DNA from: Bacteroidales bacterium | GTDB taxonomy: Bacteria > Bacteroidota > Bacteroidia > Bacteroidales > UBA7960 | Length of the DNA: 38,484 nt | Assembly: GCA_007135645.1 (NCBI GenBank) | Contig: SLIL01000158.1 | Location: 1 to 38,484 of the forward strand | Direction: 5' to 3' | Part shown: one piece after another, positions 19,775 to 31,275 of the stretch | How positions within the stretch are numbered: position 1 is the first letter of the stretch | Layout: each line of letters begins with the position of its first letter | The notes under the pieces: model-generated | Told to the model about the DNA's origin: nothing | What the model saw: the letters and a program-made list of their open reading frames with translations, nothing else | Databases searched by the model: none | Position numbers and translations under genes: made by a program

Positions 19775-20710
19775 ATGCAAAAAGAGATCATCGACCCCAT
19801 AAGACGTGAGATATTAAAGAAGGAGCTTAGCAGAGATAAATTTTTGCGCACCACCAATTATGGAAACAATGAGATCTATGTAATAACGCACCACGATTCG
19901 CCCAACACTATGCTTGAGGTGGGTCGCCTGCGGGAGATCTCATTCAGGGCGGCCGGTGGCGGTACCGGTAAAGAAACCGATGTGGATGAATTTGATACCG
20001 GCAAGGTACCTTACAAGCAATTGATTGTTTGGGATCCGGCAGAAAATGAAATCGTAGGAGGATACCGTTTTATCCTCGGGTATGAAGTGGAAAAATCTGC
20101 CGATGGCAAACCCATGCTGGCAACCTCCGGGTTGCTGGAATATTCGGATAAGTTCGTCAACGAGTATTTACCTTATACCATTGAGCTGGGCAGATCTTTT
20201 GTTCAGCCCAAATACCAGCCCTCCAAAGAGAGCCGTAGGGGGCTTTTCTCCCTGGACAACCTATGGGACGGGCTTGGTGCACTGGTGGTTGATCATCCTG
20301 AAATCAAATACTTCTTTGGCAAAGTAACCATGTATGATCATTTTAATCCAATAGCCAGGGATATGATCCTGTATTTCCTGCACAAATTTTTCCCGGACAC
20401 CGAGGATCTTACAAGCCCGAAAGAACCTCTCACTTACAAGACGGATGTTTCAGGATTTGATGCCCTTTTCAATGGCAACACCTTTGAGGAAAATCATAAA
20501 ATCCTTTTCCAGGAAGTGCGCAAGCATGGCGAGAATATCCCCCCGCTGGTGAACTCCTACATGGTACTCAGCCCCACGATGAAAACCTTCGGTACCGCAT
20601 GGAACGAAGAGTTTGGCGGGGTAGAAGAGACTGCTATTCTGATCCGGATTGAAGATATTTATGAAAACAAGAAAGACAGGCACATCAGCACATACACCAA
20701 AGGTCAATAA
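19775..20710 (+). CDS. GNAT (Acetyltransf_5) N-acyltransferase, GlsB/OlsB-like
   Basis: EVGRLREISFRAAGGG, VWD...IVGGYR, ELGRSFV, LWDGLGAL, IPPLVNSYM. Confidence 0.85.
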   Translation: MQKEIIDPIRREILKKELSRDKFLRTTNYGNNEIYVITHHDSPNTMLEVGRLREISFRAAGGGTGKETDVDEFDTGKVPYKQLIVWDPAENEIVGGYRFILGYEVEKSADGKPMLATSGLLEYSDKFVNEYLPYTIELGRSFVQPKYQPSKESRRGLFSLDNLWDGLGALVVDHPEIKYFFGKVTMYDHFNPIARDMILYFLHKFFPDTEDLTSPKEPLTYKTDVSGFDALFNGNTFEENHKILFQEVRKHGENIPPLVNSYMVLSPTMKTFGTAWNEEFGGVEETAILIRIEDIYENKKDRHISTYTKGQ

Positions 20711-21412: not shown

Positions 21413-22447
21413 TTATGGCCTGTACCGGGCCCCTTGCAGAATGGCACGGGAATCGTTTCTCTGAAAAATAAGTTCATTGAGAGAAACATTATCATTGCGC
21501 CGCATATACTCCCTCACAATCTGCCAGCCGATGTAAACACCCATTCGAGGAGCTGATTGATTGGAAAAAGGAGCTGTGAATGGAGCATCGCCGGTAAATT
21601 TCTGGATCATTTGCCGATCGGTTTGATACAGCATCTCGTTGTTTACCAGGAAACTCCAGCTATGCCCTTCATTGTTTCGGGCCCAGTTGATATGATCTGT
21701 AGAGTAAAAAATCTTTAGTGAATCGGCAAAGGCCGGGAACATGGAATCCAGGAAATACAGCAGTTTCCCCTCAAAGATCATAAAGTCGAGAAGTGTTTCG
21801 GGCCTGAAAGGGCTACGTGCCAGTATATATTGCCCGATCTCACGCATTACCTCAACGGGGGCTGCTTCCGGGGAGAACCTTACCCGCTTGAATGCCGGCA
21901 CACCTACTTTGTCATAGTTGTCATAATGCCTTCCAAGAAACATATCCAGAGCGATGACCACTACATCATCCTGATAAAAAACAGGGTATTCAAAGTCCAG
22001 CCCTGACACATAGGTGTAGATTTCAGGAATGTTGTGATCGGGGAAATGATAGTGAAAATAGCGAAAGGCCAGATTGAGTTGTTCCTGTAGGCCTTCCGTG
22101 GTGGGCCATATTTCTGCAACATCTTCGTAAATCTCCCTTATAAATGCATCTGTAATATAATCGAAGAGTTGCTGCTGCCCCATGGGAGTATTGATCTCCT
22201 CGCCAAGAAACAGGTAAAAGTCGTTGATATAAGGCTCTATTTCTTCCCTGAGGTTGTGGGGGTCAATAGTAAAAAGGGCTTTCTCGTAGCGTTTAATCTC
22301 AACAGGATCTATATCAATGTGCGAAATATTGGCCTCGTAATGAGGTTTTCGTTTACAGGCTGAAAGATTAAACAGCAGAAACACAGCAAAACATAAAACA
22401 AAAAGAGATCCTGAAACATTTTTGAAAGCAAAAGCACGATAAGGCAT
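21413..22447 (-). CDS. gldB: Gliding motility lipoprotein GldB-like
   Basis: Lipobox LSA-C31; IALDMFLG, TLLDFMIFEGKLLY, PFT...APRMGVYIGWQIVREYM, terminal YRP. Confidence 0.85.
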   Translation of the reverse strand: MPYRAFAFKNVSGSLFVLCFAVFLLFNLSACKRKPHYEANISHIDIDPVEIKRYEKALFTIDPHNLREEIEPYINDFYLFLGEEINTPMGQQQLFDYITDAFIREIYEDVAEIWPTTEGLQEQLNLAFRYFHYHFPDHNIPEIYTYVSGLDFEYPVFYQDDVVVIALDMFLGRHYDNYDKVGVPAFKRVRFSPEAAPVEVMREIGQYILARSPFRPETLLDFMIFEGKLLYFLDSMFPAFADSLKIFYSTDHINWARNNEGHSWSFLVNNEMLYQTDRQMIQKFTGDAPFTAPFSNQSAPRMGVYIGWQIVREYMRRNDNVSLNELIFQRNDSRAILQGARYRP

Positions 22448-23665: not shown

Positions 23666-24958
23666 TTACCATGTAGTAGAATACCTCTGGTTAAACATCC
23701 TGAAGGTTTTCATCTCCCCGGTCCGGTCTGACTTGTAGTGAATATGACCCGAGAGCATGCTTACCGCGCTGCGGGAAGACGAAAGATTCTCAATATTCAG
23801 GGGCTGATCAACTTCCAGGGTAAAGGTGTGATTGCCCTTGCCCGAGAAACTTTTACCAATGTTGCGTACCACAACCGGAGAGTGTCCCTGCCACTCCAGT
23901 GATACCTGGTCTATGGTAAAGGGAGCCTCATACCTGGATACTACCGTAATGGTTATGGTTGATTTGTCAATATGATCTCCGGATCTTGATACCTCTGCAA
24001 ACTGCAAGGGCTCATTGACAAATATGGATGCCTTGTCGGCGGTAATGTCAAAATAGAAACGATTCTGAACATTGGTGTTGCCAAACCTGTACCTTACCAT
24101 CAAATGGTTTTCGGGATCTTCATAGCAGTTGTAGTAATCGTAGGTAACGGTGACCACATGTCCCTCTGTGGAAGTTCCTGTTACCCTGGCGCAGTCAGAG
24201 GTGATCTGGGGTCTTTGGGCTGTGGTGGCAAAATCATTCCTGAACCGCAAGGCATATTTCAGTTCTCCGGGTTTGCTGTCAATCTCCACCAGTTCAATGG
24301 TATTATACAGATTTCGGAGCCTTGTCATTCCCATTCTTGCCTGTTCTCTGCGACCATCCACAAAATAATCCTGCAGGATACGCAATTCAGCAATGCCTTT
24401 TTCAATGTCTTCAATCGTATGCACCCTGTCGATACTGGCCAGGATCTCCTCCAGTTGTCCGGTAAGTTCACGATCCCTCATCCTGAATTCCATAACCAGT
24501 TTCTGAAGTTCAAAATTGGAAAATGGATATTTGATGTGGTAGTTATACGTGGCAACCCTGGTTCTGCGGTCCTCAATCTTTTCCCAGTAATATTCATCCA
24601 CATTTGACAGGGAAACACCCTGCAAATAAGGCACCGGCCCTGAAGTAGTGGTTATGGTTGTGGCGTGCTTCTCCAGAAAAACAGATACATTGTTGTTGAA
24701 ATTTGCCTCTTCAATGGTCATTTCTGAGGTAGCCTGCACATTCTGGGCAACAGCATTTACAATGTTCTCCCTGACCATATTAAGGGCATTTCTCTGGGCA
24801 TCCTGTATGGAAGAACCAGTGCCTACCACGATGATATAATCTGCTTCCAGACCATTAACCCATGATGGCTTTCTTCCGCTCCGGTCTGCGACCCTTGTTT
24901 GAGCAAAAAGGGATGCGCCAAATGAGAAAAGAAAAAAGACTACCAGCAATTTCTTCAT
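23666..24958 (-). CDS. Secreted hypothetical protein: LPP20-like N-terminus, helical middle, beta-rich C-terminal domains
   Basis: Signal LFA-Q; KPSWV...YIIVVGTG...AQRNAL...IVNAV resembles LPP20-type patterns. Confidence 0.75.
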   Translation of the reverse strand: MKKLLVVFFLFSFGASLFAQTRVADRSGRKPSWVNGLEADYIIVVGTGSSIQDAQRNALNMVRENIVNAVAQNVQATSEMTIEEANFNNNVSVFLEKHATTITTTSGPVPYLQGVSLSNVDEYYWEKIEDRRTRVATYNYHIKYPFSNFELQKLVMEFRMRDRELTGQLEEILASIDRVHTIEDIEKGIAELRILQDYFVDGRREQARMGMTRLRNLYNTIELVEIDSKPGELKYALRFRNDFATTAQRPQITSDCARVTGTSTEGHVVTVTYDYYNCYEDPENHLMVRYRFGNTNVQNRFYFDITADKASIFVNEPLQFAEVSRSGDHIDKSTITITVVSRYEAPFTIDQVSLEWQGHSPVVVRNIGKSFSGKGNHTFTLEVDQPLNIENLSSSRSAVSMLSGHIHYKSDRTGEMKTFRMFNQRYSTTW

Positions 24959-24990
24959 AAGACAATAGTTTTGTTTAATATAAGGTAAAG

Positions 24991-25016
24991 TACGGCCGGT
25001 TTTAAAACCGGCCGTA
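24991..25016. terminator. Perfect 26-bp palindrome inside the operon (partial terminator or mRNA stabiliser)
   Basis: TACGGCCGGTTTT|AAAACCGGCCGTA, 30 nt after the lipoprotein stop. Confidence 0.7.
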
Positions 25017-25046
25017 AACCAAAAAATTAACAGTAGTGTTTAAAGA

Positions 25047-25634
25047 TCAGGGGCGCTCTTGTTCAAGACGCTCCATTTCTTCGTTGAATATCCGCTCAAA
25101 CTGCATGCGGTCATAGTCCAGGCGCAACCTGTCATCGCGGCTGATGCGGGAAGAGATATTGTTCAACAGCTCATCCTTATCCACTTCCACTGCCATATAT
25201 ACCGAATACTGGCCACCTCTTTCAAACACCTGGTTACAGGTAATACTTACGTTGTTAAGCACCTGGTTTACAACCTGACGTGTCATATCCTCAAAACGCT
25301 CAGCAAATTCATTGGCATCACCCACGGTTATATCCTGGGTATAACGGTCTGTAACCGCTCTGATGGTACTGTTGATACTTGCAGCCAGGCTTGAATTGGC
25401 ATCAAGGTTGGCCCTGCGCCTGGTGGAAGCCAGATTGGTTCCTTCTGCCATTCCTGTTCCCCTGAAATGCGTAGCATCGGTAAAATAGTCGTTATCGCTG
25501 CATGGGATCGCAACTTCAGTACCATGAGCACTGTAATCCGGGGCCTGTTGTTTGCTTCTGCAACCGGTTATAGCGCCTGCCACAAAAATCAATGACAACA
25601 GAAGGATCATTTTGTTAAATAGTTGTTTTTTCAT
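25047..25634 (-). CDS. LPP20-family-like lipoprotein
   Basis: Lipobox ITG-C25; FRGTGMAEG...TRRRANLDA...LAASI and YSVYMAVEV; one further Cys pair. Confidence 0.8.
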   Translation of the reverse strand: MKKQLFNKMILLLSLIFVAGAITGCRSKQQAPDYSAHGTEVAIPCSDNDYFTDATHFRGTGMAEGTNLASTRRRANLDANSSLAASINSTIRAVTDRYTQDITVGDANEFAERFEDMTRQVVNQVLNNVSITCNQVFERGGQYSVYMAVEVDKDELLNNISSRISRDDRLRLDYDRMQFERIFNEEMERLEQERP

Positions 25635-25736
25635 AGTTGATTGTTTTAATGATTAAACATAAATGTGCCATTCTAAACATCCACGTCTCACGCAGGCTAC
25701 AGTATGGCTTCTAAAGTAATTAAACTGATTTTCAAC

Positions 25737-25873
25737 AAAAGTACCACTTCGAACAACGCAATACCCCCCCGACCCCCTAAAAGGGGGAGCTCGCAATGAA
25801 TTGCATTCAGGGCTGTTGAAAAATATGATTGTGTTCTCAATAACATAAAAAACGCTTTTCGAAGTAAACTTTT
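25737..25873. repeat. ~130-bp element with imperfect terminal inverted repeats and an internal C/G-rich hairpin, copy 1
   Basis: Ends AAAAGTACCACTTCGAACAACG / CGCTTTTCGAAGTAAACTTTT; internal CCCCCTAAAAGGGGG; homologous to 28487-28612. Confidence 0.75.
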
Positions 25874-25911
25874 AACAATATCCAAAGGTAAATCAAAAAC
25901 AGCACCAAAAA

Positions 25912-26871
25912 TCAATTGCGGTACAACCAGCTCCAGTCGAAGTATCTGTGCGCGCCGTAGTAAGCCCATCTTTTGGCAACATCCCTTCCTGCTTCCACCT
26001 TAAGTCTTTGCATATCCACATCATCCTCGTAGCGGGTCATTCTGAACTGCCATGAACTGGCTCCTTCGGCCTCAACAGCCTGTGTAACGGTTTGCACCAG
26101 TTGTTGTGCCTCTTCATAACAATCCATATCAGGGGTGATCTGTCCAAGGTTTTCTTCAACCTTTATCAGATCTTTCCCTGCCCATGCAGCCCTTGCAGCA
26201 GCAAGATGCTGATTGCATTTGTCGTTGGCATAAAGCTGGTAAATATCAGCAGTAAGATTCATGGCCATATGGAAGCACTCCCTGCTCACATCAGGAACCG
26301 ACATCAGTAAAAAGAGCGCTTCACCAAACTGCTTCTGGTTGGCAAGGGCCTGCGAGCCTGTAATGATCACATCGCACTGGGAATTGTAATATTCCACAAT
26401 ACGCTCTTTGCCCCGCTCCACAAAACCCCTGAACTGGCCATGCCGTGGGTTTACATTTCGCAGTGCCTGGGAATAGGCCCGCTCCTCGGTATTGCCCACC
26501 CCTCTCAGTTCTATGCTGGTCTGGCTGAAAATATTCTGACTGACAACATCCACAATATAAAGACTAAGCTCAACGGTGAGCGCAACCTGCGGAGGTGCAG
26601 TGGGTGTAACATCGTGTGTAATGATCGATACCATGGGCACCATGGCAAACTGTGCCTGCCCTTCGATAGCTCCCAGTCCATTCTGGGTTGCAATCTGCAT
26701 CATTCTGTTTTGAAGCATATTTTGTGTCCCGGCAGGCAAGCCCGCTTCATCAGGAACAATAGCTGCAATACCGATACGACCAAGGTCATCGGTGCGGCCC
26801 AGGTTGCTCTGTGCAACCAGGCTTGTAGCTGCAAACAGGATGATTACAATGATTCCGGTTATTTTCTTCAT
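25912..26871 (-). CDS. Secreted hypothetical protein: alpha/beta N-terminal domain plus TPR-like helical C-terminus
   Basis: Signal LVA-Q; IFSQTSIELRGVG...RAYSQAL; four Cys in the helical half. Confidence 0.8.
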   Translation of the reverse strand: MKKITGIIVIILFAATSLVAQSNLGRTDDLGRIGIAAIVPDEAGLPAGTQNMLQNRMMQIATQNGLGAIEGQAQFAMVPMVSIITHDVTPTAPPQVALTVELSLYIVDVVSQNIFSQTSIELRGVGNTEERAYSQALRNVNPRHGQFRGFVERGKERIVEYYNSQCDVIITGSQALANQKQFGEALFLLMSVPDVSRECFHMAMNLTADIYQLYANDKCNQHLAAARAAWAGKDLIKVEENLGQITPDMDCYEEAQQLVQTVTQAVEAEGASSWQFRMTRYEDDVDMQRLKVEAGRDVAKRWAYYGAHRYFDWSWLYRN

Positions 26872-26895
26872 AAAATATGGTTTTGTAAAATTAGG

Positions 26896-27867
26896 TTATC
26901 TTTCTCCTACAATCAGCCAGGCTTCTCCCAGGCCTCTCATATAGATCTGCGAATCAATTCCCAGGTTTTGCCTCAGGTGTCTTCTGAGGTCACTCACAAA
27001 GCCCCTGGTATCCACTGCCCTTTCCCTGCCGCGGTTGTCTACCCTCATCATGGGAATACGCACCTGCTCAAGCCTCATCAGTGTATGGGAAGCATCAGCC
27101 AGGCTGAATCTTCCTTGCACAGTATTGTCAAAGAACCAATCTTCAATATGCTCAAGCAATTCTTTTTCTTCTCCATCAAAGTCAAAATAAGTTTCCAGGT
27201 CACCGTCATACCAGTTGTCCCAAACCCTTACCATTACATTCACTTCACGGCCATTCTCAAACATATCTTCAAAATGTCTCATGAGTCCGGCATTGAAACC
27301 GTCCATGTGGCTAAGCACTGCTTCTTCAAGCAGAAGCTCGGGAGTAGCAGATGAAGAAGGTGCTCCGGAGCCGGCTGCACCGGCCACTTGTTTTGAGGTA
27401 TAAGCGTCCAGACCGCGAAGGTTAAAGGTTATATACCTGTGTGGCCCCTGCCTTCTGATATCAAAACTAAGATCGAGAATTATATCAGCACCTGCAGTTC
27501 TTTTTAGAACATCAATGGGGGTTTCGGCAACCTGTGAGCCGGAGGAGGAAGAGGCCAGCATAGCTATTTCTGCTGCTTCACGCTGCATATTACGCAGTTC
27601 CATTTCCAGGTCTTTCAAAGGAAAGCCCCTGTTAGCCATAATTTCTCCCATTTTGGTGATGACCATACGAAGATCCGGGTCGTTTTGCATTGCTGCGGTA
27701 TAGTCAGGAAGGGTCTGGGTGCGTCCCATAGATTCAAATTCCATGCTGTACCCGTTGCTGATACAATACTGATCACTGGGTACTACCATGATGGTGGGAC
27801 GGCGTGCCTGAGAAAATACACTGAAACAGATTAAACTGATTAAAAGGATAATAAAAACTTTTTTCAT
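26896..27867 (-). CDS. DUF6175-family-like secreted protein
   Basis: Signal VFS-Q; RRPTIMVVPSD, RGFPLKDLE, ADII, LRGLDAYTSKQVAG, EQVRIP (recognised from memory, not searched). Confidence 0.75.
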   Translation of the reverse strand: MKKVFIILLISLICFSVFSQARRPTIMVVPSDQYCISNGYSMEFESMGRTQTLPDYTAAMQNDPDLRMVITKMGEIMANRGFPLKDLEMELRNMQREAAEIAMLASSSSGSQVAETPIDVLKRTAGADIILDLSFDIRRQGPHRYITFNLRGLDAYTSKQVAGAAGSGAPSSSATPELLLEEAVLSHMDGFNAGLMRHFEDMFENGREVNVMVRVWDNWYDGDLETYFDFDGEEKELLEHIEDWFFDNTVQGRFSLADASHTLMRLEQVRIPMMRVDNRGRERAVDTRGFVSDLRRHLRQNLGIDSQIYMRGLGEAWLIVGER

Positions 27868-27922
27868 AGACCATTGATCTTTTTAGGTTTATAAATAAAT
27901 GATGGATGCTGCCTGGTAGAGG

Positions 27923-28465
27923 TTAAAACCCATGATCCAGGCGTCGTGCAATTCCGTCGGCCTCAAGCTGTCTGCGAAGGTTATCATACATTACCTGGGC
28001 ATAAATAGCTACCTTGTACCCCCTGGGCCGGCTCATCCTCAGCCTGTCCTGCCCGCTGGGCATGCCGTCGGTTGTAAGGTTGATAAAATTAATGTATTTG
28101 CCGCTGGCAGAAAAGAATTCATCAAAATAGTCAGCATGTTTTTCGCCTGCATTGGGATCGCGCAAAATGGCTGGAGTGGCCGCTGCACCATGACCGGCGG
28201 GTATTCCCCTGAAGATCACCGATGCCACGGCATTCATTTTTGCCTGAATGATGGCATCCTCCACGCGGCGACCATAACCCCATACTTTCATAGTTTTGGT
28301 ACCGTCACTTCCTACGCCGGTTATTTCAACTTCATAGTTATAGCTACTACTGTAATGAGCTCTCCTGTCGCTTCTTGAGTGCCTTGCCTGTGAGCAGGCA
28401 ATTTCTGAAAAAGCAAACATTATTAGCATGAACAATAAAATTCGAGGTGAGACTTTCATAAACAT
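27923..28465 (-). CDS. Exported hypothetical protein (possible lipoprotein); alternative start at 28459
   Basis: Hydrophobic leader ending EIACSQ; VWGYG...AIIQAKMNAVASVIFRGIP and C-terminal LRRQLEADGI. Confidence 0.8.
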   Translation of the reverse strand: MFMKVSPRILLFMLIMFAFSEIACSQARHSRSDRRAHYSSSYNYEVEITGVGSDGTKTMKVWGYGRRVEDAIIQAKMNAVASVIFRGIPAGHGAAATPAILRDPNAGEKHADYFDEFFSASGKYINFINLTTDGMPSGQDRLRMSRPRGYKVAIYAQVMYDNLRRQLEADGIARRLDHGF

Positions 28466-28486
28466 TGGTTTTTTTAGTTAATATTT

Positions 28487-28612
28487 GAATCGCTTCAGAA
28501 AAGTATAATACCCTCATTCCCCCAGAAAGGGGAGCTCGCAAAATAATTGAATTTGCACGAGCTGGTAAAAGGTGTTTTTTATTAACATAAAAAATACTTT
28601 TCGGAGTGACTT
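28487..28612. repeat. ~130-bp element with imperfect terminal inverted repeats, copy 2
   Basis: Ends TCGCTTCAGAAAAGTAT / ATACTTTTCGGAGTGA; shares AATACC, CCCCC, GGGGAGCTCGCAA, TAACATAAAAAA and CTTTTCG with copy 1, in the same order and orientation. Confidence 0.75.
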
Positions 28613-28651
28613 ATTTTTTCTTTCTGTATAGTTTAGAATTAAATGGTTTTT

Positions 28652-30292
28652 TCAAAACATAAATTTGGTGCCCACCATTATTGAACTTCCGGTACGGCCT
28701 GTAAAGATGTCGTCCCATGGGCGCGGAGCGAAATTAGCTCCTTCGCTTTCGGCATCTGTAACAAAAACATAATTCCCAATACCCATGATCAACTGGAAGT
28801 TATGGGTCAGATTCATTGCCAGATTAACTCCTGGTTTCACATAGTAAGCTCTTATGGCATTATCTTCGGAAAAGTCATCGTTGGAAGCACTTTCCAGGCC
28901 AAACCCCGCATAGGGCCGCAACTCCATATTACGGGTAAGCTGCATCCCTTTGGCAAGCCCACCGGAAACACTGAGTAAAGTAAAGTTTTTATCGGAAACA
29001 AACCTGTTATATCCACTGCCAACGCCCAGATCAACATACACAAACAACGCCCTGATGCCGGTAAGCCTTCCTGTGCGGTAATCAAGCCTTGAGTAGAAGC
29101 CTTCCAGCCCGCCAACTTCACCTCCCAGGGTAATCTCAAACCCCATGTCGTTGCGTTGCACAATGGTATATCCCTGCTCCAGCCTTCGCCCTGCAACCTG
29201 GTAGAACTGCGAAGTACCCATATCGCCGTATGCTTCATGGCGGTTATCGTGAATCCTGGAGCTACGTCCTGCCCTTATCACACCTCTTCTCACTGGCTCA
29301 ACAGTATTGGTCCGCCGGTTGTAAACATGCTCATAAACAAAGAAGCGATAGTCCGTTCTTAATCCTTCCTTTAGTCCAATTTTAGCCCTGGGCGGTCTGC
29401 GTTCATAGAGTGGAGTTACCACTTTAAATGCTTCTACCCTTCTCTCCAGCTCAAAGATCACATCCTCATAAGCTTTCTGAACCAGCTCCTGCAAAAGCTG
29501 ATCTTCTGATTTGGTGCCTAAGCGGCGTGTCTGGGTGCTGTTTACTGTAGAGGGCAGCACCAGGGATACATTAGCCACGTGCTCCAGGGGAAACTCCATA
29601 GAATCAAAGGCTTCCCGTTTCTGCCGTTTCACTTCCGGGCTGTCGTCTTCATAGATCCAAGTTTCATACAAGGCATAGCGCACCTCATCATTAAAATCTA
29701 CCCGGTACAGGTGGGCTGACATTTGGGCTGTCCATCCGCGTAGGGTGCTTGCGTTCTCGGTTTCACTCATGTTTCTGATATTGCGCAGATCAATAATCAG
29801 CACAAAACTTTTATTTACCAGTTCATTGCCCATATCCTGCAGAGCCGCATCACCCCTGCTGGTGGAAGAGGCAGCAAAATAATCGGCATCTGTGGCTGCA
29901 AACCGCCCTCTCTGGTGCACAAGCTCCATGTCCATGGTCCCGTCAGCCTGGCGGTTGTACCATTTTGCAATCACCTTTCTGCCAACATCCAGTTTCTTCA
30001 GATCATTCAGGAAAGCATCCTCCACATCGGCGGGCATCCTGAGGTTATCCCTGGAGAAACCCGGCCGTAAAAAGAGGGTCTCCAGGTTATGATTGTCAAA
30101 TTTATCAGAGAATTCAATTTGGGAGATCTTTTCCCGGGTTCGCGACCAGTGATTCGCACCGGGATAGTCCACAAAGAAAACAGTTACCGAATTACGGGTA
30201 TAAGATTCAGGCAGTACCGATGAAAAAAGCTTTTGGGAGAAGGTCGGATAACATAACAATACAATAATGATGAAAAGTTTAAAATTCTTCAT
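28652..30292 (-). CDS. Secreted multidomain protein with a C-terminal outer-membrane beta-barrel
   Basis: Signal peptide; last ~165 aa are amphipathic strands ending GTKFMF; middle motif AKIGLKEGLRTDYRFFVYE. Confidence 0.8.
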   Translation of the reverse strand: MKNFKLFIIIVLLCYPTFSQKLFSSVLPESYTRNSVTVFFVDYPGANHWSRTREKISQIEFSDKFDNHNLETLFLRPGFSRDNLRMPADVEDAFLNDLKKLDVGRKVIAKWYNRQADGTMDMELVHQRGRFAATDADYFAASSTSRGDAALQDMGNELVNKSFVLIIDLRNIRNMSETENASTLRGWTAQMSAHLYRVDFNDEVRYALYETWIYEDDSPEVKRQKREAFDSMEFPLEHVANVSLVLPSTVNSTQTRRLGTKSEDQLLQELVQKAYEDVIFELERRVEAFKVVTPLYERRPPRAKIGLKEGLRTDYRFFVYEHVYNRRTNTVEPVRRGVIRAGRSSRIHDNRHEAYGDMGTSQFYQVAGRRLEQGYTIVQRNDMGFEITLGGEVGGLEGFYSRLDYRTGRLTGIRALFVYVDLGVGSGYNRFVSDKNFTLLSVSGGLAKGMQLTRNMELRPYAGFGLESASNDDFSEDNAIRAYYVKPGVNLAMNLTHNFQLIMGIGNYVFVTDAESEGANFAPRPWDDIFTGRTGSSIMVGTKFMF

Positions 30293-30396
30293 AATTAGTC
30301 CTTTTGTTTTGGTAGTTGAAGCAGTAAAATTAACAAACTCATCATATATAAGCTGGATGTTTATCTAAATAAACACTCCATTTACAGATGACCGAA

Positions 30397-30404
30397 CAAA
30401 TATA
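30397..30404 (-). promoter_or_regulatory. Putative -7 element (TATATTTG) for the six-gene cluster
   Basis: TAnnTTTG about 105 nt upstream of the ATG at 30292. Confidence 0.5.
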
Positions 30405-30795: not shown

Positions 30796-31275
30796 ATGAA
30801 GAAAAAATCTTTTTTATCAGTATTGATGATGCTATTGATAGTGTCAGCCGGAATAGCCCAGGATTCAAGAGCTTTGCGTGCCGCAAGAATGAGCTTTAAC
30901 TCCGCTGAAAGGAACTACAGCAGAGGCAATTACCAGGAAGCAGCCCGTGAGTATGAGATCGTTATTAATACCATACCAGCCAATACAGACTCCAGAAGGC
31001 ACCTGGAAATGCGTCTTGAAAGCCTGATAGCCATGGTGGACATCCATTTTTACCGTTTTATCAATATTTCTAATGCCTGCCAGTACATGCATATGTATTT
31101 TGAGAACATGAACACAATCCGCAACAGTGGTACCTTACGCGCCTCTTCCCTCAGAGATTTCCAGAGAAAAGAACAGGAGTTCAGATCGGAACATGCTACC
31201 AAGTGCGACAGTTATCAAAACATCCATAGAGACATGGAGGAGTTCAGAAAGCGGTTTGAAGAGGAATTTGAATAA
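30796..31275 (+). CDS. Secreted helical, TPR-like hypothetical protein
   Basis: Signal GIA-Q; FNSAERNYSRGNYQEAAREYEIVI is TPR-like; two Cys. Confidence 0.75.
   Translation: MKKKSFLSVLMMLLIVSAGIAQDSRALRAARMSFNSAERNYSRGNYQEAAREYEIVINTIPANTDSRRHLEMRLESLIAMVDIHFYRFINISNACQYMHMYFENMNTIRNSGTLRASSLRDFQRKEQEFRSEHATKCDSYQNIHRDMEEFRKRFEEEFE

Follow-up and report, generated by a model that had tools for sequence, protein, structure and literature searches.

What could be built by six neighbouring genes that all encode exported proteins, none of which resembles an enzyme? The question is raised by a stretch of 38,484 nucleotides from a Bacteroidales bacterium (hereafter the window: contig SLIL01000158.1 of assembly GCA_007135645.1, positions 1 to 38,484 of the forward strand). 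The program-made list of its open reading frames (ORFs) holds six co-oriented frames at 23666-30292, on the minus strand. The first-pass annotation of this DNA, made from its letters, had singled them out as six exported genes of an envelope cluster, and the ORF list and the signal sequences agree with it on export, orientation and lengths. We name the genes A to F, A being the first in transcription order and F the last:

28652..30292, minus strand: gene A, 546 amino acids, with a signal peptide, a FlgT-like periplasmic region and a predicted C-terminal outer-membrane barrel
27923..28465, minus strand: gene B, 180 amino acids, a small exported alpha/beta protein of no named family, called as an ORF and found in natural fusion to C in some lineages
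26896..27867, minus strand: gene C, 323 amino acids, a DUF6175 protein (PF19672), the marker gene of the cluster
25912..26871, minus strand: gene D, 319 amino acids, with an N-terminal alpha/beta region and a Cys-containing helical part resembling tetratricopeptide repeats (TPR), as judged from its sequence only
25047..25634, minus strand: gene E, 195 amino acids, an LPP20-type lipoprotein (lipobox ITGC, Cys25), an optional member
23666..24958, minus strand: gene F, 430 amino acids, with an LPP20-like N-terminal domain (residues about 31-119, by hhalign) followed by ~300 mostly beta residues and a conserved Cys, an optional member

We propose that the locus is a conserved, accessory and non-flagellar envelope module of Bacteroidota whose products assemble as an outer-membrane-associated scaffold, a reading that we hold to be evenly poised between right and wrong. 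A to F would be the subunits of a scaffold located at the outer membrane on its periplasmic side, perhaps shaped as a ring or disk and held there by the barrel of A and the lipid of E; D would be its ligand-binding part, and the whole would serve envelope architecture or anchoring, not catalysis. The assembly is proposed by analogy with FlgT, FlgP and FlgO, which build the H-ring of Vibrio.

All six proteins begin with a hydrophobic signal sequence. In A, B, C, D and F this signal ends with a small residue followed by Gln, and a crude scripted pattern count over homologues finds the signature in 55 of 59 A, 63 of 69 B, 82 of 90 C, 78 of 79 D and 50 of 56 F; a count of the same kind finds a lipobox-like pattern in no A, in 0/90 C, in no D and in 28 of the 39 E. 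At E ≤ 1 no enzyme family of Pfam or NCBIfam matches any of the six, in agreement with the lack of a recognisable enzymatic motif remarked on at first sight, and NCBIfam gives no credible match of any sort for them. C is the only one that Pfam recognises; E and the C-terminus of A obtain hints below threshold, from LPP20 and from barrel families respectively. The profiles of the six family alignments, searched against the sequences of the Protein Data Bank (PDB), retrieve nothing significant (best E 0.03-0.8). An origin as a defence system was considered and rejected: PADLOC gave only a CARF/HEPN match of 17.3 bits, for A.

The conservation of the cluster goes far beyond chance. Relatives of C are encoded in at least 583 genome stretches, according to a scan in which each species was represented by a single genome. 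The best 80 of these loci all come from assemblies of Bacteroidales or Marinilabiliales type, and a tblastn search with the six proteins of the window finds the order A-B-C-D almost everywhere among them. Co-occurrence across genomes had been set beforehand as a test of the cluster, and among the 52 loci that are well covered around C (at least 3 kb before it and at least 5 kb after it) A-B-C-D are found in 50, F in 35, E in 30 and all six genes in 28; in 23 of the 80 loci only A-D are detected. The intergenic gaps are short (median 31-43 nt) and the strict order of A-B-C-D persists down to 20-30% identity. It is found again in a very distant operon from another lineage of the phylum (L050), where an A-like gene (hhalign 94.5%), a B-like gene (98.6%), a DUF6175 gene (E 2.5e-21) and a D-like gene (96.1%) follow each other in this order. 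E and F vary in order or strand between loci, and in many of the listed loci without F the next ORF past D lies on the opposite strand. Because A-D are near-constant and E and F variable in presence, order and strand, the conserved unit is a four-gene core A-B-C-D to which the two LPP20-type genes are frequent but optional add-ons; the unit of six genes first described thus holds for its core, and not for E and F.

Three regions are distinguished in A:

29429..30214, minus strand: A residues 27-288, an alpha/beta domain with helical insertions, of FlgT-M/LptE/CT253 type according to fold searches
29150..29422, minus strand: A residues 291-381, a small beta domain at the position of FlgT-C, from the strands of the model and its place within the range aligned to FlgT
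28655..29149, minus strand: A residues 382-546, an 8-stranded beta-barrel of OmpA/NspA/OmpX type, from the model and a fold search

By its AlphaFold2 model (mean predicted local distance difference test (pLDDT) 84.6, predicted template modelling score (pTM) 0.79), A would be a FlgT-like periplasmic protein joined, in most lineages, to an 8-stranded OmpA-type barrel. FlgT is the sole non-barrel family matching A with a Z above 8: residues 31-381 superpose on chain residues 119-377 of FlgT 8z5n with Z 8.2 (216 aligned, root mean square deviation (rmsd) 11.7), and residues 27-381 on FlgT 3w1e with Z 8.1 (220 aligned, rmsd 10.9). Foldseek also matches A with FlgT, at E 4.8e-4 and 9.3e-4 and probabilities of 0.96-0.97 (9.3e-4 and 0.97 for 3w1e). 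The alpha/beta domain further resembles CT253 (A 32-288 with 6uxc_B, Z 6.9) and an LptE-type lipoprotein (A 35-284 with 2r76_B, Z 6.8). The small beta domain is the most conserved stretch of the A family: it carries the motif RAKIGxKEGL...RRGVVRA and the invariant residues P300, G306, E309 and N350. As for the barrel, whose fusion to the rest of A had been recognised from the sequence, both the model and the fold search agree with it: the DSSP string of the model displays eight long strands, NspA 1p4t is matched with Z 15.3 (rmsd 3.0, 144 of 155 aligned), the N-domain of OprF with Z 15.1 and the transmembrane domain of OmpA with Z 14.8. The barrel ends in an aromatic residue, Phe546, which is the last of the protein and invariant in the family alignment, and the Pfam family OMP_b-brl matches weakly 5 of 29 family members. 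We take this barrel to be a membrane anchor, in keeping with the anchoring role first given to it; a barrel with 8 strands is of the anchor type, and not a secretion pore.

B is matched by no Pfam family in 29 of 29 family members, scattered chance hits apart. C is matched by PF19672 over nearly the whole model (positions 2-292 of 293, E 1.5e-105, 352.9 bits for a cut-off of 23). The two proteins are naturally fused in some lineages: B and C form a single ORF of 473-475 amino acids in five fetched loci, and a database search returned 44 protein clusters of such fusions (471-503 amino acids), PF19672 being present in all. At the junction the C-terminus of B is joined directly to the mature N-terminus of C, the signal peptide of C being lost. 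Since they are one polypeptide in these lineages, B and C probably act as one unit. In more distant lineages a protein of 424 amino acids consists of a B-like N-terminal part (hhalign 73%) followed by DUF6175, and the next gene encodes an LPP20 protein (32.5 bits); the distant DUF6175 gene also adjoins LPP20 genes in genomes G129, G134 and G149. Fusions and LPP20 neighbours being independent signs, B, C and the LPP20 proteins would work together.

An AlphaFold model was obtained for the B-C fusion (pLDDT 78.1, pTM 0.63), and its residues were mapped to C by an alignment including 29 fusion proteins, in which the last 3-4 residues of B are misplaced. Two domains are seen in C:

27268..27807, minus strand: C residues about 21-200, an alpha/beta domain of the CsgG/PelC/FlgT-M/TolB-N fold, from the B-C fusion model
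26899..27252, minus strand: C residues about 206-322, a second alpha/beta domain, corresponding to fusion-model residues 357-473 with pLDDT mostly above 85

The top Foldseek matches of the fusion model are FlgT (E 2.4e-5 and 1.9e-4), then GNA1162 (E 1.6e-3), CsgG (4uv2, E 1.8e-3, probability 0.97), PelC and LpoB (E 4.7e-2), and a structural aligner, the second search method, returned the same set of families. For the N-domain of C (fusion residues 164-351) this aligner gave Z 9.8 with CsgG 4q79_A (rmsd 3.9, 136 aligned), Z 9.3 with PelC 5t10_C (rmsd 2.8, 116 of 138 aligned) and Z 8.5 with the M domain of FlgT 3w1e (chain residues 91-270); further matches are HpaA-type proteins (Z about 8), the TolB N-domain (Z 7.0-7.4), LptE-type proteins (Z about 7) and the LpoB C-domain (Z 6.6). 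Residues 50-351 of the fusion, which reach into both proteins, superpose on FlgT 47-289 with a middling Z of 8.1 (rmsd 3.8, 140 aligned). The second domain of C matches only generic small alpha/beta proteins (Z 6-7). In the model, the N-domain of C has the core fold of the CsgG and PelC monomers, and B and C together would resemble the N-M part of FlgT. At the site where CsgG carries its hairpin insertion the model has a short loop of low confidence only (fusion residues 250-264), and no long amphipathic hairpin of CsgG type is obvious in its secondary-structure string, judged by eye. The FlgT- and CsgG-like parts that had been announced for this locus find support in the predicted folds of A, of B-C and of the N-domain of C, with middling Z values for FlgT, and not in the sequences, no CsgG or FlgT family being matched.

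E belongs to the lipoproteins: its Cys25 is nearly invariant in the family alignment and leaves a mature protein of ~170 residues, of which residues 52-149 align to the LPP20 model. The window protein scores 19.2 bits with Pfam LPP20 (PF02169), under the cut-off of 25.9, and 18 of the 29 E homologues compared with LPP20 reach E ≤ 0.1 (best E 1.9e-6). Compared by hhalign with an alignment of 17 bona fide LPP20 domains from the same phylum, the E family gives 96.8% (E 2.4e-10) and the F family 97.0% (E 1.2e-10). The F protein of the window is not matched by the Pfam LPP20 model at E ≤ 1, and 12 of 29 F homologues are at E ≤ 0.1 (best E 1.2e-4); its signal peptide is ordinary, not of the lipobox type. 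Two weaker signs are leads only, the PDB entry 5ok8 (LPP20) retrieved by the E profile at E 0.82, and the LPP20 and Ig-like structural neighbours which the protein atlas places below its bar for F, next to clusters of F's own family. From these profile comparisons E and the N-terminus of F are remote relatives of LPP20 and FlgP, FlgP itself falling in Pfam LPP20; the likeness to LPP20 noticed at the outset is thereby borne out, and extended by sequence methods to F. Basic residues (RSK) directly follow the lipobox Cys of E, which suggests that E faces the periplasm. An LPP20-type protein encoded beside a distant DUF6175 gene (L053) was examined as a possible orthologue of F; it is of LPP20 type, and with 10.5% in hhalign its orthology is unsupported. 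The genome of the window holds three other LPP20-domain genes outside the window itself, at C369:7781-8083, C77:8643-8831 and C356:2581-2823, within frames of 483-649 amino acids.

Three of the proteins had been credited with a common pattern, G-x-G followed by spaced alanines. This resemblance stands for E and F, which are homologous (hhalign 93%, E 2.8e-7), and does not extend to B, which gives no significant score with E (27%) or with the LPP20 domain profile (2.3%). No further kinship appears within the cluster by hhalign: C with D and A with C show no relation beyond their signal peptides, B with F match by the signal peptide alone, and A with D reach 58% only, over an N-terminal strand. 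In D the LPP20 profile is undetected (0.3%).

The relatives of D are listed throughout as hypothetical proteins, and the protein atlas returned only D's own hypothetical clusters. C166 and C199 are invariant in the family. Of 29 members, 13 match the TPR-like Pfam family ARM_TT21 at E ≤ 0.1, with 1.2e-6 as best E, and the D protein of the window scores 16.2 bits for a cut-off of 27. Long variants of 400-518 amino acids (L059:8997-10511, L060:8997-10499 and L090:7283-8491) carry at their C-terminus either a Laminin_B domain (62.5 bits) or an F5/8 type C domain (30.5 and 34.4 bits for a cut-off of 28.2), and in L059, L060 and L090 two D paralogues stand in tandem. F5/8 type C (discoidin) and Laminin_B domains are typical ligand- or glycan-binding modules, and their presence at the end of the long variants suggests that D is a ligand-binding part. 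A complex prediction for B, C and D, made without controls and with D as the scored partner (score 0.00, mark 0.32), bears neither way on binding.

How does this set compare with the systems that its folds recall? The FlgT/FlgP/FlgO proteins of the Vibrio H-ring (3W1E, 8Z5N, and 9YDS as the paper names it) are likewise exported, non-enzymatic and placed under the outer membrane. B-C has FlgT as its best Foldseek match, A matches FlgT too, and E and F belong to the superfamily of FlgP. In the cited work the FlgT ring is of C26 symmetry, and FlgP and FlgO are of C58 symmetry with lipid anchors in the outer membrane (10.64898/2025.12.02.691832; PMC13626733), so that lipid attachment is met there in FlgP and FlgO and here in E. 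The differences are the following: FlgI was not found, the FlgT-like A is fused to a barrel, what is an N-M arrangement in FlgT is distributed between B and C in most lineages, nothing corresponds to D, the majority of the parts are without lipidation and no Pfam FlgT match is obtained. The search for FlgI (PF02119) covered the genome of the window, which is 92.1% complete, and matched the control genomes as expected; its negative result agrees with the non-flagellar context first assigned to the locus and, to our knowledge, the phylum is non-flagellated.

With PelC and CsgG the likeness lies in the alpha/beta core fold of the C N-domain and in a periplasmic location near the outer membrane; PelC is a dodecamer according to the titles of the PDB entries among the matches. 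C differs from both by the lack of a lipobox (0/90) and of a Pfam CsgG match and by its extra C-terminal domain, and from PelC by its surroundings, where no pel-type genes recur. With the LPP20 family (PF02169; LPP20 of H. pylori, 5OK8) the cluster shares a lipoprotein, E, and LPP20 domains in E and F; at the opposite, the E of the window stays below the Pfam threshold, F adds ~300 residues of beta domains, and both are embedded in a DUF6175 operon. We know of FlgT, FlgP, FlgO, CsgG and PelC only from flagellar motors or specific export systems. The cluster is distinct from these by DUF6175 as a non-lipidated protein of CsgG fold, by its barrel-bearing FlgT-like A and by its D component. The literature search found no paper on DUF6175, nor any joining at least three of LPP20, Bacteroidetes, CsgG and FlgP, in a corpus that leaves out about 1.7 million PubMed Central articles; within it, the presumption that the operon has no already characterised function is upheld.

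The cluster occupies a defined chromosomal site. Four related species without DUF6175 keep the neighbourhood of nadE and p103/omp/gldB/ysxC intact, nadE abutting p103 in two genomes (G003 and G005); the cluster is thus a dispensable unit, inserted or deleted at a fixed site between nadE and gldB. In the other two of these four species (G014, locus L144, and G015, locus L146) an orthologue of E (63-69% identity) stands alone between nadE and omp239, A-D and F being gone, and in G014 a gene neighbouring the cluster, for a protein of 159 amino acids, is reduced to its C-terminal third; this suggests a stepwise deletion of the cluster. In the window, the exported 159-amino-acid protein is encoded at 30796-31275 (plus strand), divergently beside A; it has no NCBIfam match and is kept only in the closest relatives. 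DUF6175 is patchy in distribution: it was found in 9 of the 21 other species within the genus (in 14 of 41 relatives if this genome is included) and in 26 of the 401 genomes sampled across the phylum, and relatives of C are absent from plasmid records. As the cluster is dispensable at a defined nadE-gldB site, carriers and non-carriers of one genus can be directly compared.

The nearby gldB had led the first-pass annotation to consider a support to the type 9 secretion system (T9SS) or to gliding. The gene at 21413-22447 does encode a true GldB (TIGR03514, 239.8 bits). Nevertheless GldB lies within 8 kb of the cluster in only 2 of the 80 loci and gldB stays in place in the four related species examined that lack the cluster, so that we regard the adjacency as coincidental and reject a role tied to gldB, gliding or T9SS. 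GlsB (glycine N-acyltransferase of glycine-lipid synthesis, 491.9 bits) is encoded nearby, a few genes away, at 19775-20710 (plus strand), and this neighbourhood too is kept in relatives without the cluster. The recurrent neighbours among the 80 loci are asparaginase, ExbB/ExbD, alkaline phosphatase, SiaC, peptidase U32 and a TPR protein, none of them in more than 17; genes for a synthase, glycosyltransferase or transporter are not among them, nor are pel, curli or other substrate genes. In ~15-17 of the 80 loci, asparaginase, ExbB (MotA/TolQ/ExbB family), a 143-amino-acid ORF, two ExbD and alkaline phosphatase precede A on the same strand (e.g. L066:1395-2204, L060:2765-3340, L080:3402-3872 and L067:4077-5513, in L059-L080 and others). 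FlgT-type rings scaffold stators of the MotA family in Vibrio; the arrangement is absent from the window itself and may be lineage synteny only.

Two possible transcription signals were noted:

30397..30404, minus strand: TATATTTG, a possible Bacteroidota-type -7 promoter box matching the pattern TAnnTTTG, ~105 nt upstream of the start of A
24991..25016, minus strand: a hairpin with an 11-bp stem between E and F, found by a hairpin scan, a possible terminator or attenuator without clear T-run

We take TAnnTTTG to be the -7 motif of Bacteroidota; matches of this type number 33 window-wide for 34 expected, and only the position of TATATTTG is suggestive. Scans for sigma-70 promoters and terminators stayed at chance level, the number of terminator-like sites in the region being that expected from shuffled sequences. 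The D-E gap (25635-25911, 277 nt) holds a CCCCC-TTTTA-GGGGG hairpin followed by a G-run, and the contigs of one public RNA library break there, with loose ends and a 1-nt deletion at 25764; it is possibly a transcript boundary or a variable element. Of the words sampled from the locus, 86% occur in this library, which comes from an alkali sediment. All six genes are covered by its contigs, one of which (3827 nt, 26486-30312) extends from within D, across C and B, up to a point 20 nt upstream of A.

Several observations weigh against a scaffold or ring. By sequence, the Pfam models of FlgT, CsgG and LpoB find no match at E ≤ 0.1 across the six families; the FlgT models in particular are unmatched at E ≤ 0.1 in 29 A, 29 B and 29 D homologues and at E ≤ 1 in the six window proteins, as is CsgG (PF03783) in these six at E ≤ 1. 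By structure, the Z values of 8-10 obtained for the FlgT-, CsgG- and PelC-like domains are little above the 7-8 that the tool gives to unrelated best hits, and the superpositions of A on whole multi-domain FlgT chains combine middling Z values with large rmsd (10.9-11.7). Besides, the fold does not imply a ring, since TolB N-domain, LpoB and LptE, which are monomeric, share it; oligomerisation is here inferred by analogy. B, C, D and F are without lipid anchor, unlike CsgG, PelC, FlgP and FlgO, and the barrel anchor of A is not universal, as six complete A homologues end directly after the small beta domain. The cluster is dispensable, being absent from many close relatives. Finally, the genes flanking the cluster appear in the RNA library at similar depth and DNA may be present in it, so that its contigs are only compatible with expression.

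These same folds leave room for other functions. The cluster might be an accessory of export or surface assembly, where C with B would form a funnel or plug like PelC, CsgG or LptE and, with a TPR-like, glycan-binding D, guide a polysaccharide, a lipid or a protein to an outer-membrane partner, as PelC does with the TPR region of PelB in Pel export or LptE with LptD. The matches of the C N-domain to PelC, CsgG, LptE-type proteins and GNA1162 go in this direction, as do the TPR-like helices of D and the F5/8 type C or Laminin_B ends of some of its variants. Still, the sole barrel is 8-stranded, a type too small for a conduit, no synthase, glycosyltransferase or transporter gene recurs beside the cluster, and C lacks both a lipid anchor and obvious hairpins of the CsgG kind, and we consider this explanation unlikely. 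A regulator or tether of the cell wall appears quite unlikely. Here the TolB-N- and LpoB-like domains would span the distance between the outer membrane and peptidoglycan, or contact a synthase or hydrolase from there, and in certain conditions tune envelope spacing, division or wall synthesis; it is true that the TolB N-domain and the LpoB C-domain are among the matches of C, that A is anchored in the outer membrane, and that ExbB-ExbD-ExbD, of the Pfam families of TolQ and TolR, lie upstream on the same strand in ~15 of the 80 loci. Yet the TolB and LpoB matches are weaker than those to CsgG, PelC and FlgT, an alkaline phosphatase gene separates ExbBD from the cluster, ExbBD are not in the window, and Pfam reports no peptidoglycan-binding domain (OmpA_C, LysM, SPOR) in A-F; the loss of the cluster from many close relatives better fits an optional structure than a core function of the wall.

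It could also be that the proteins are exported from one locus and act separately, for instance as periplasmic binding or stress proteins, with no single structure. One would then readily understand that two related species devoid of A-D and F have retained E alone at the site, that E and F are optional and change in order, that hairpins and possible promoter boxes precede E and F, and that the depths of the RNA contigs differ (F 141.7, E 63.9, A-C 27.2). The order of A-B-C-D, strict over such divergence and with such short gaps, is against it, and the natural B-C fusion argues for a physical cooperation of the core at least; for the six genes as independent actors we see very little chance. 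We come back to the outer-membrane-associated scaffold. That it is a free-standing ring or disk under the outer membrane of non-flagellated Bacteroidota, like an H-ring or a basal disk, seems to us rather unlikely. Such a ring would combine a barrel-anchored FlgT-like A, the pair B and C as a FlgT-like protein split in two, proteins like LPP20 and FlgP, and a TPR protein that binds a ligand. If this were true, envelope ring machines would be a much wider and older family, present in many phyla, in which the "flagellar" outer rings are one specialised branch; such machines might be platforms for other envelope motors or surface structures.

Whatever the assembly, folds of flagellar and export rings recur here as a self-contained and widely conserved operon in a phylum devoid of flagella, with no enzyme or substrate genes attached. 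Should the proteins assemble, Bacteroidota, which matter in the communities of gut, sediment and digesters, would possess a structure at the outer membrane that is so far undescribed, and DUF6175 would be placed in a context for the first time. This would also bear on the evolution of the flagellar outer rings, which may have arisen through the recruitment of a pre-existing envelope module, or the reverse.

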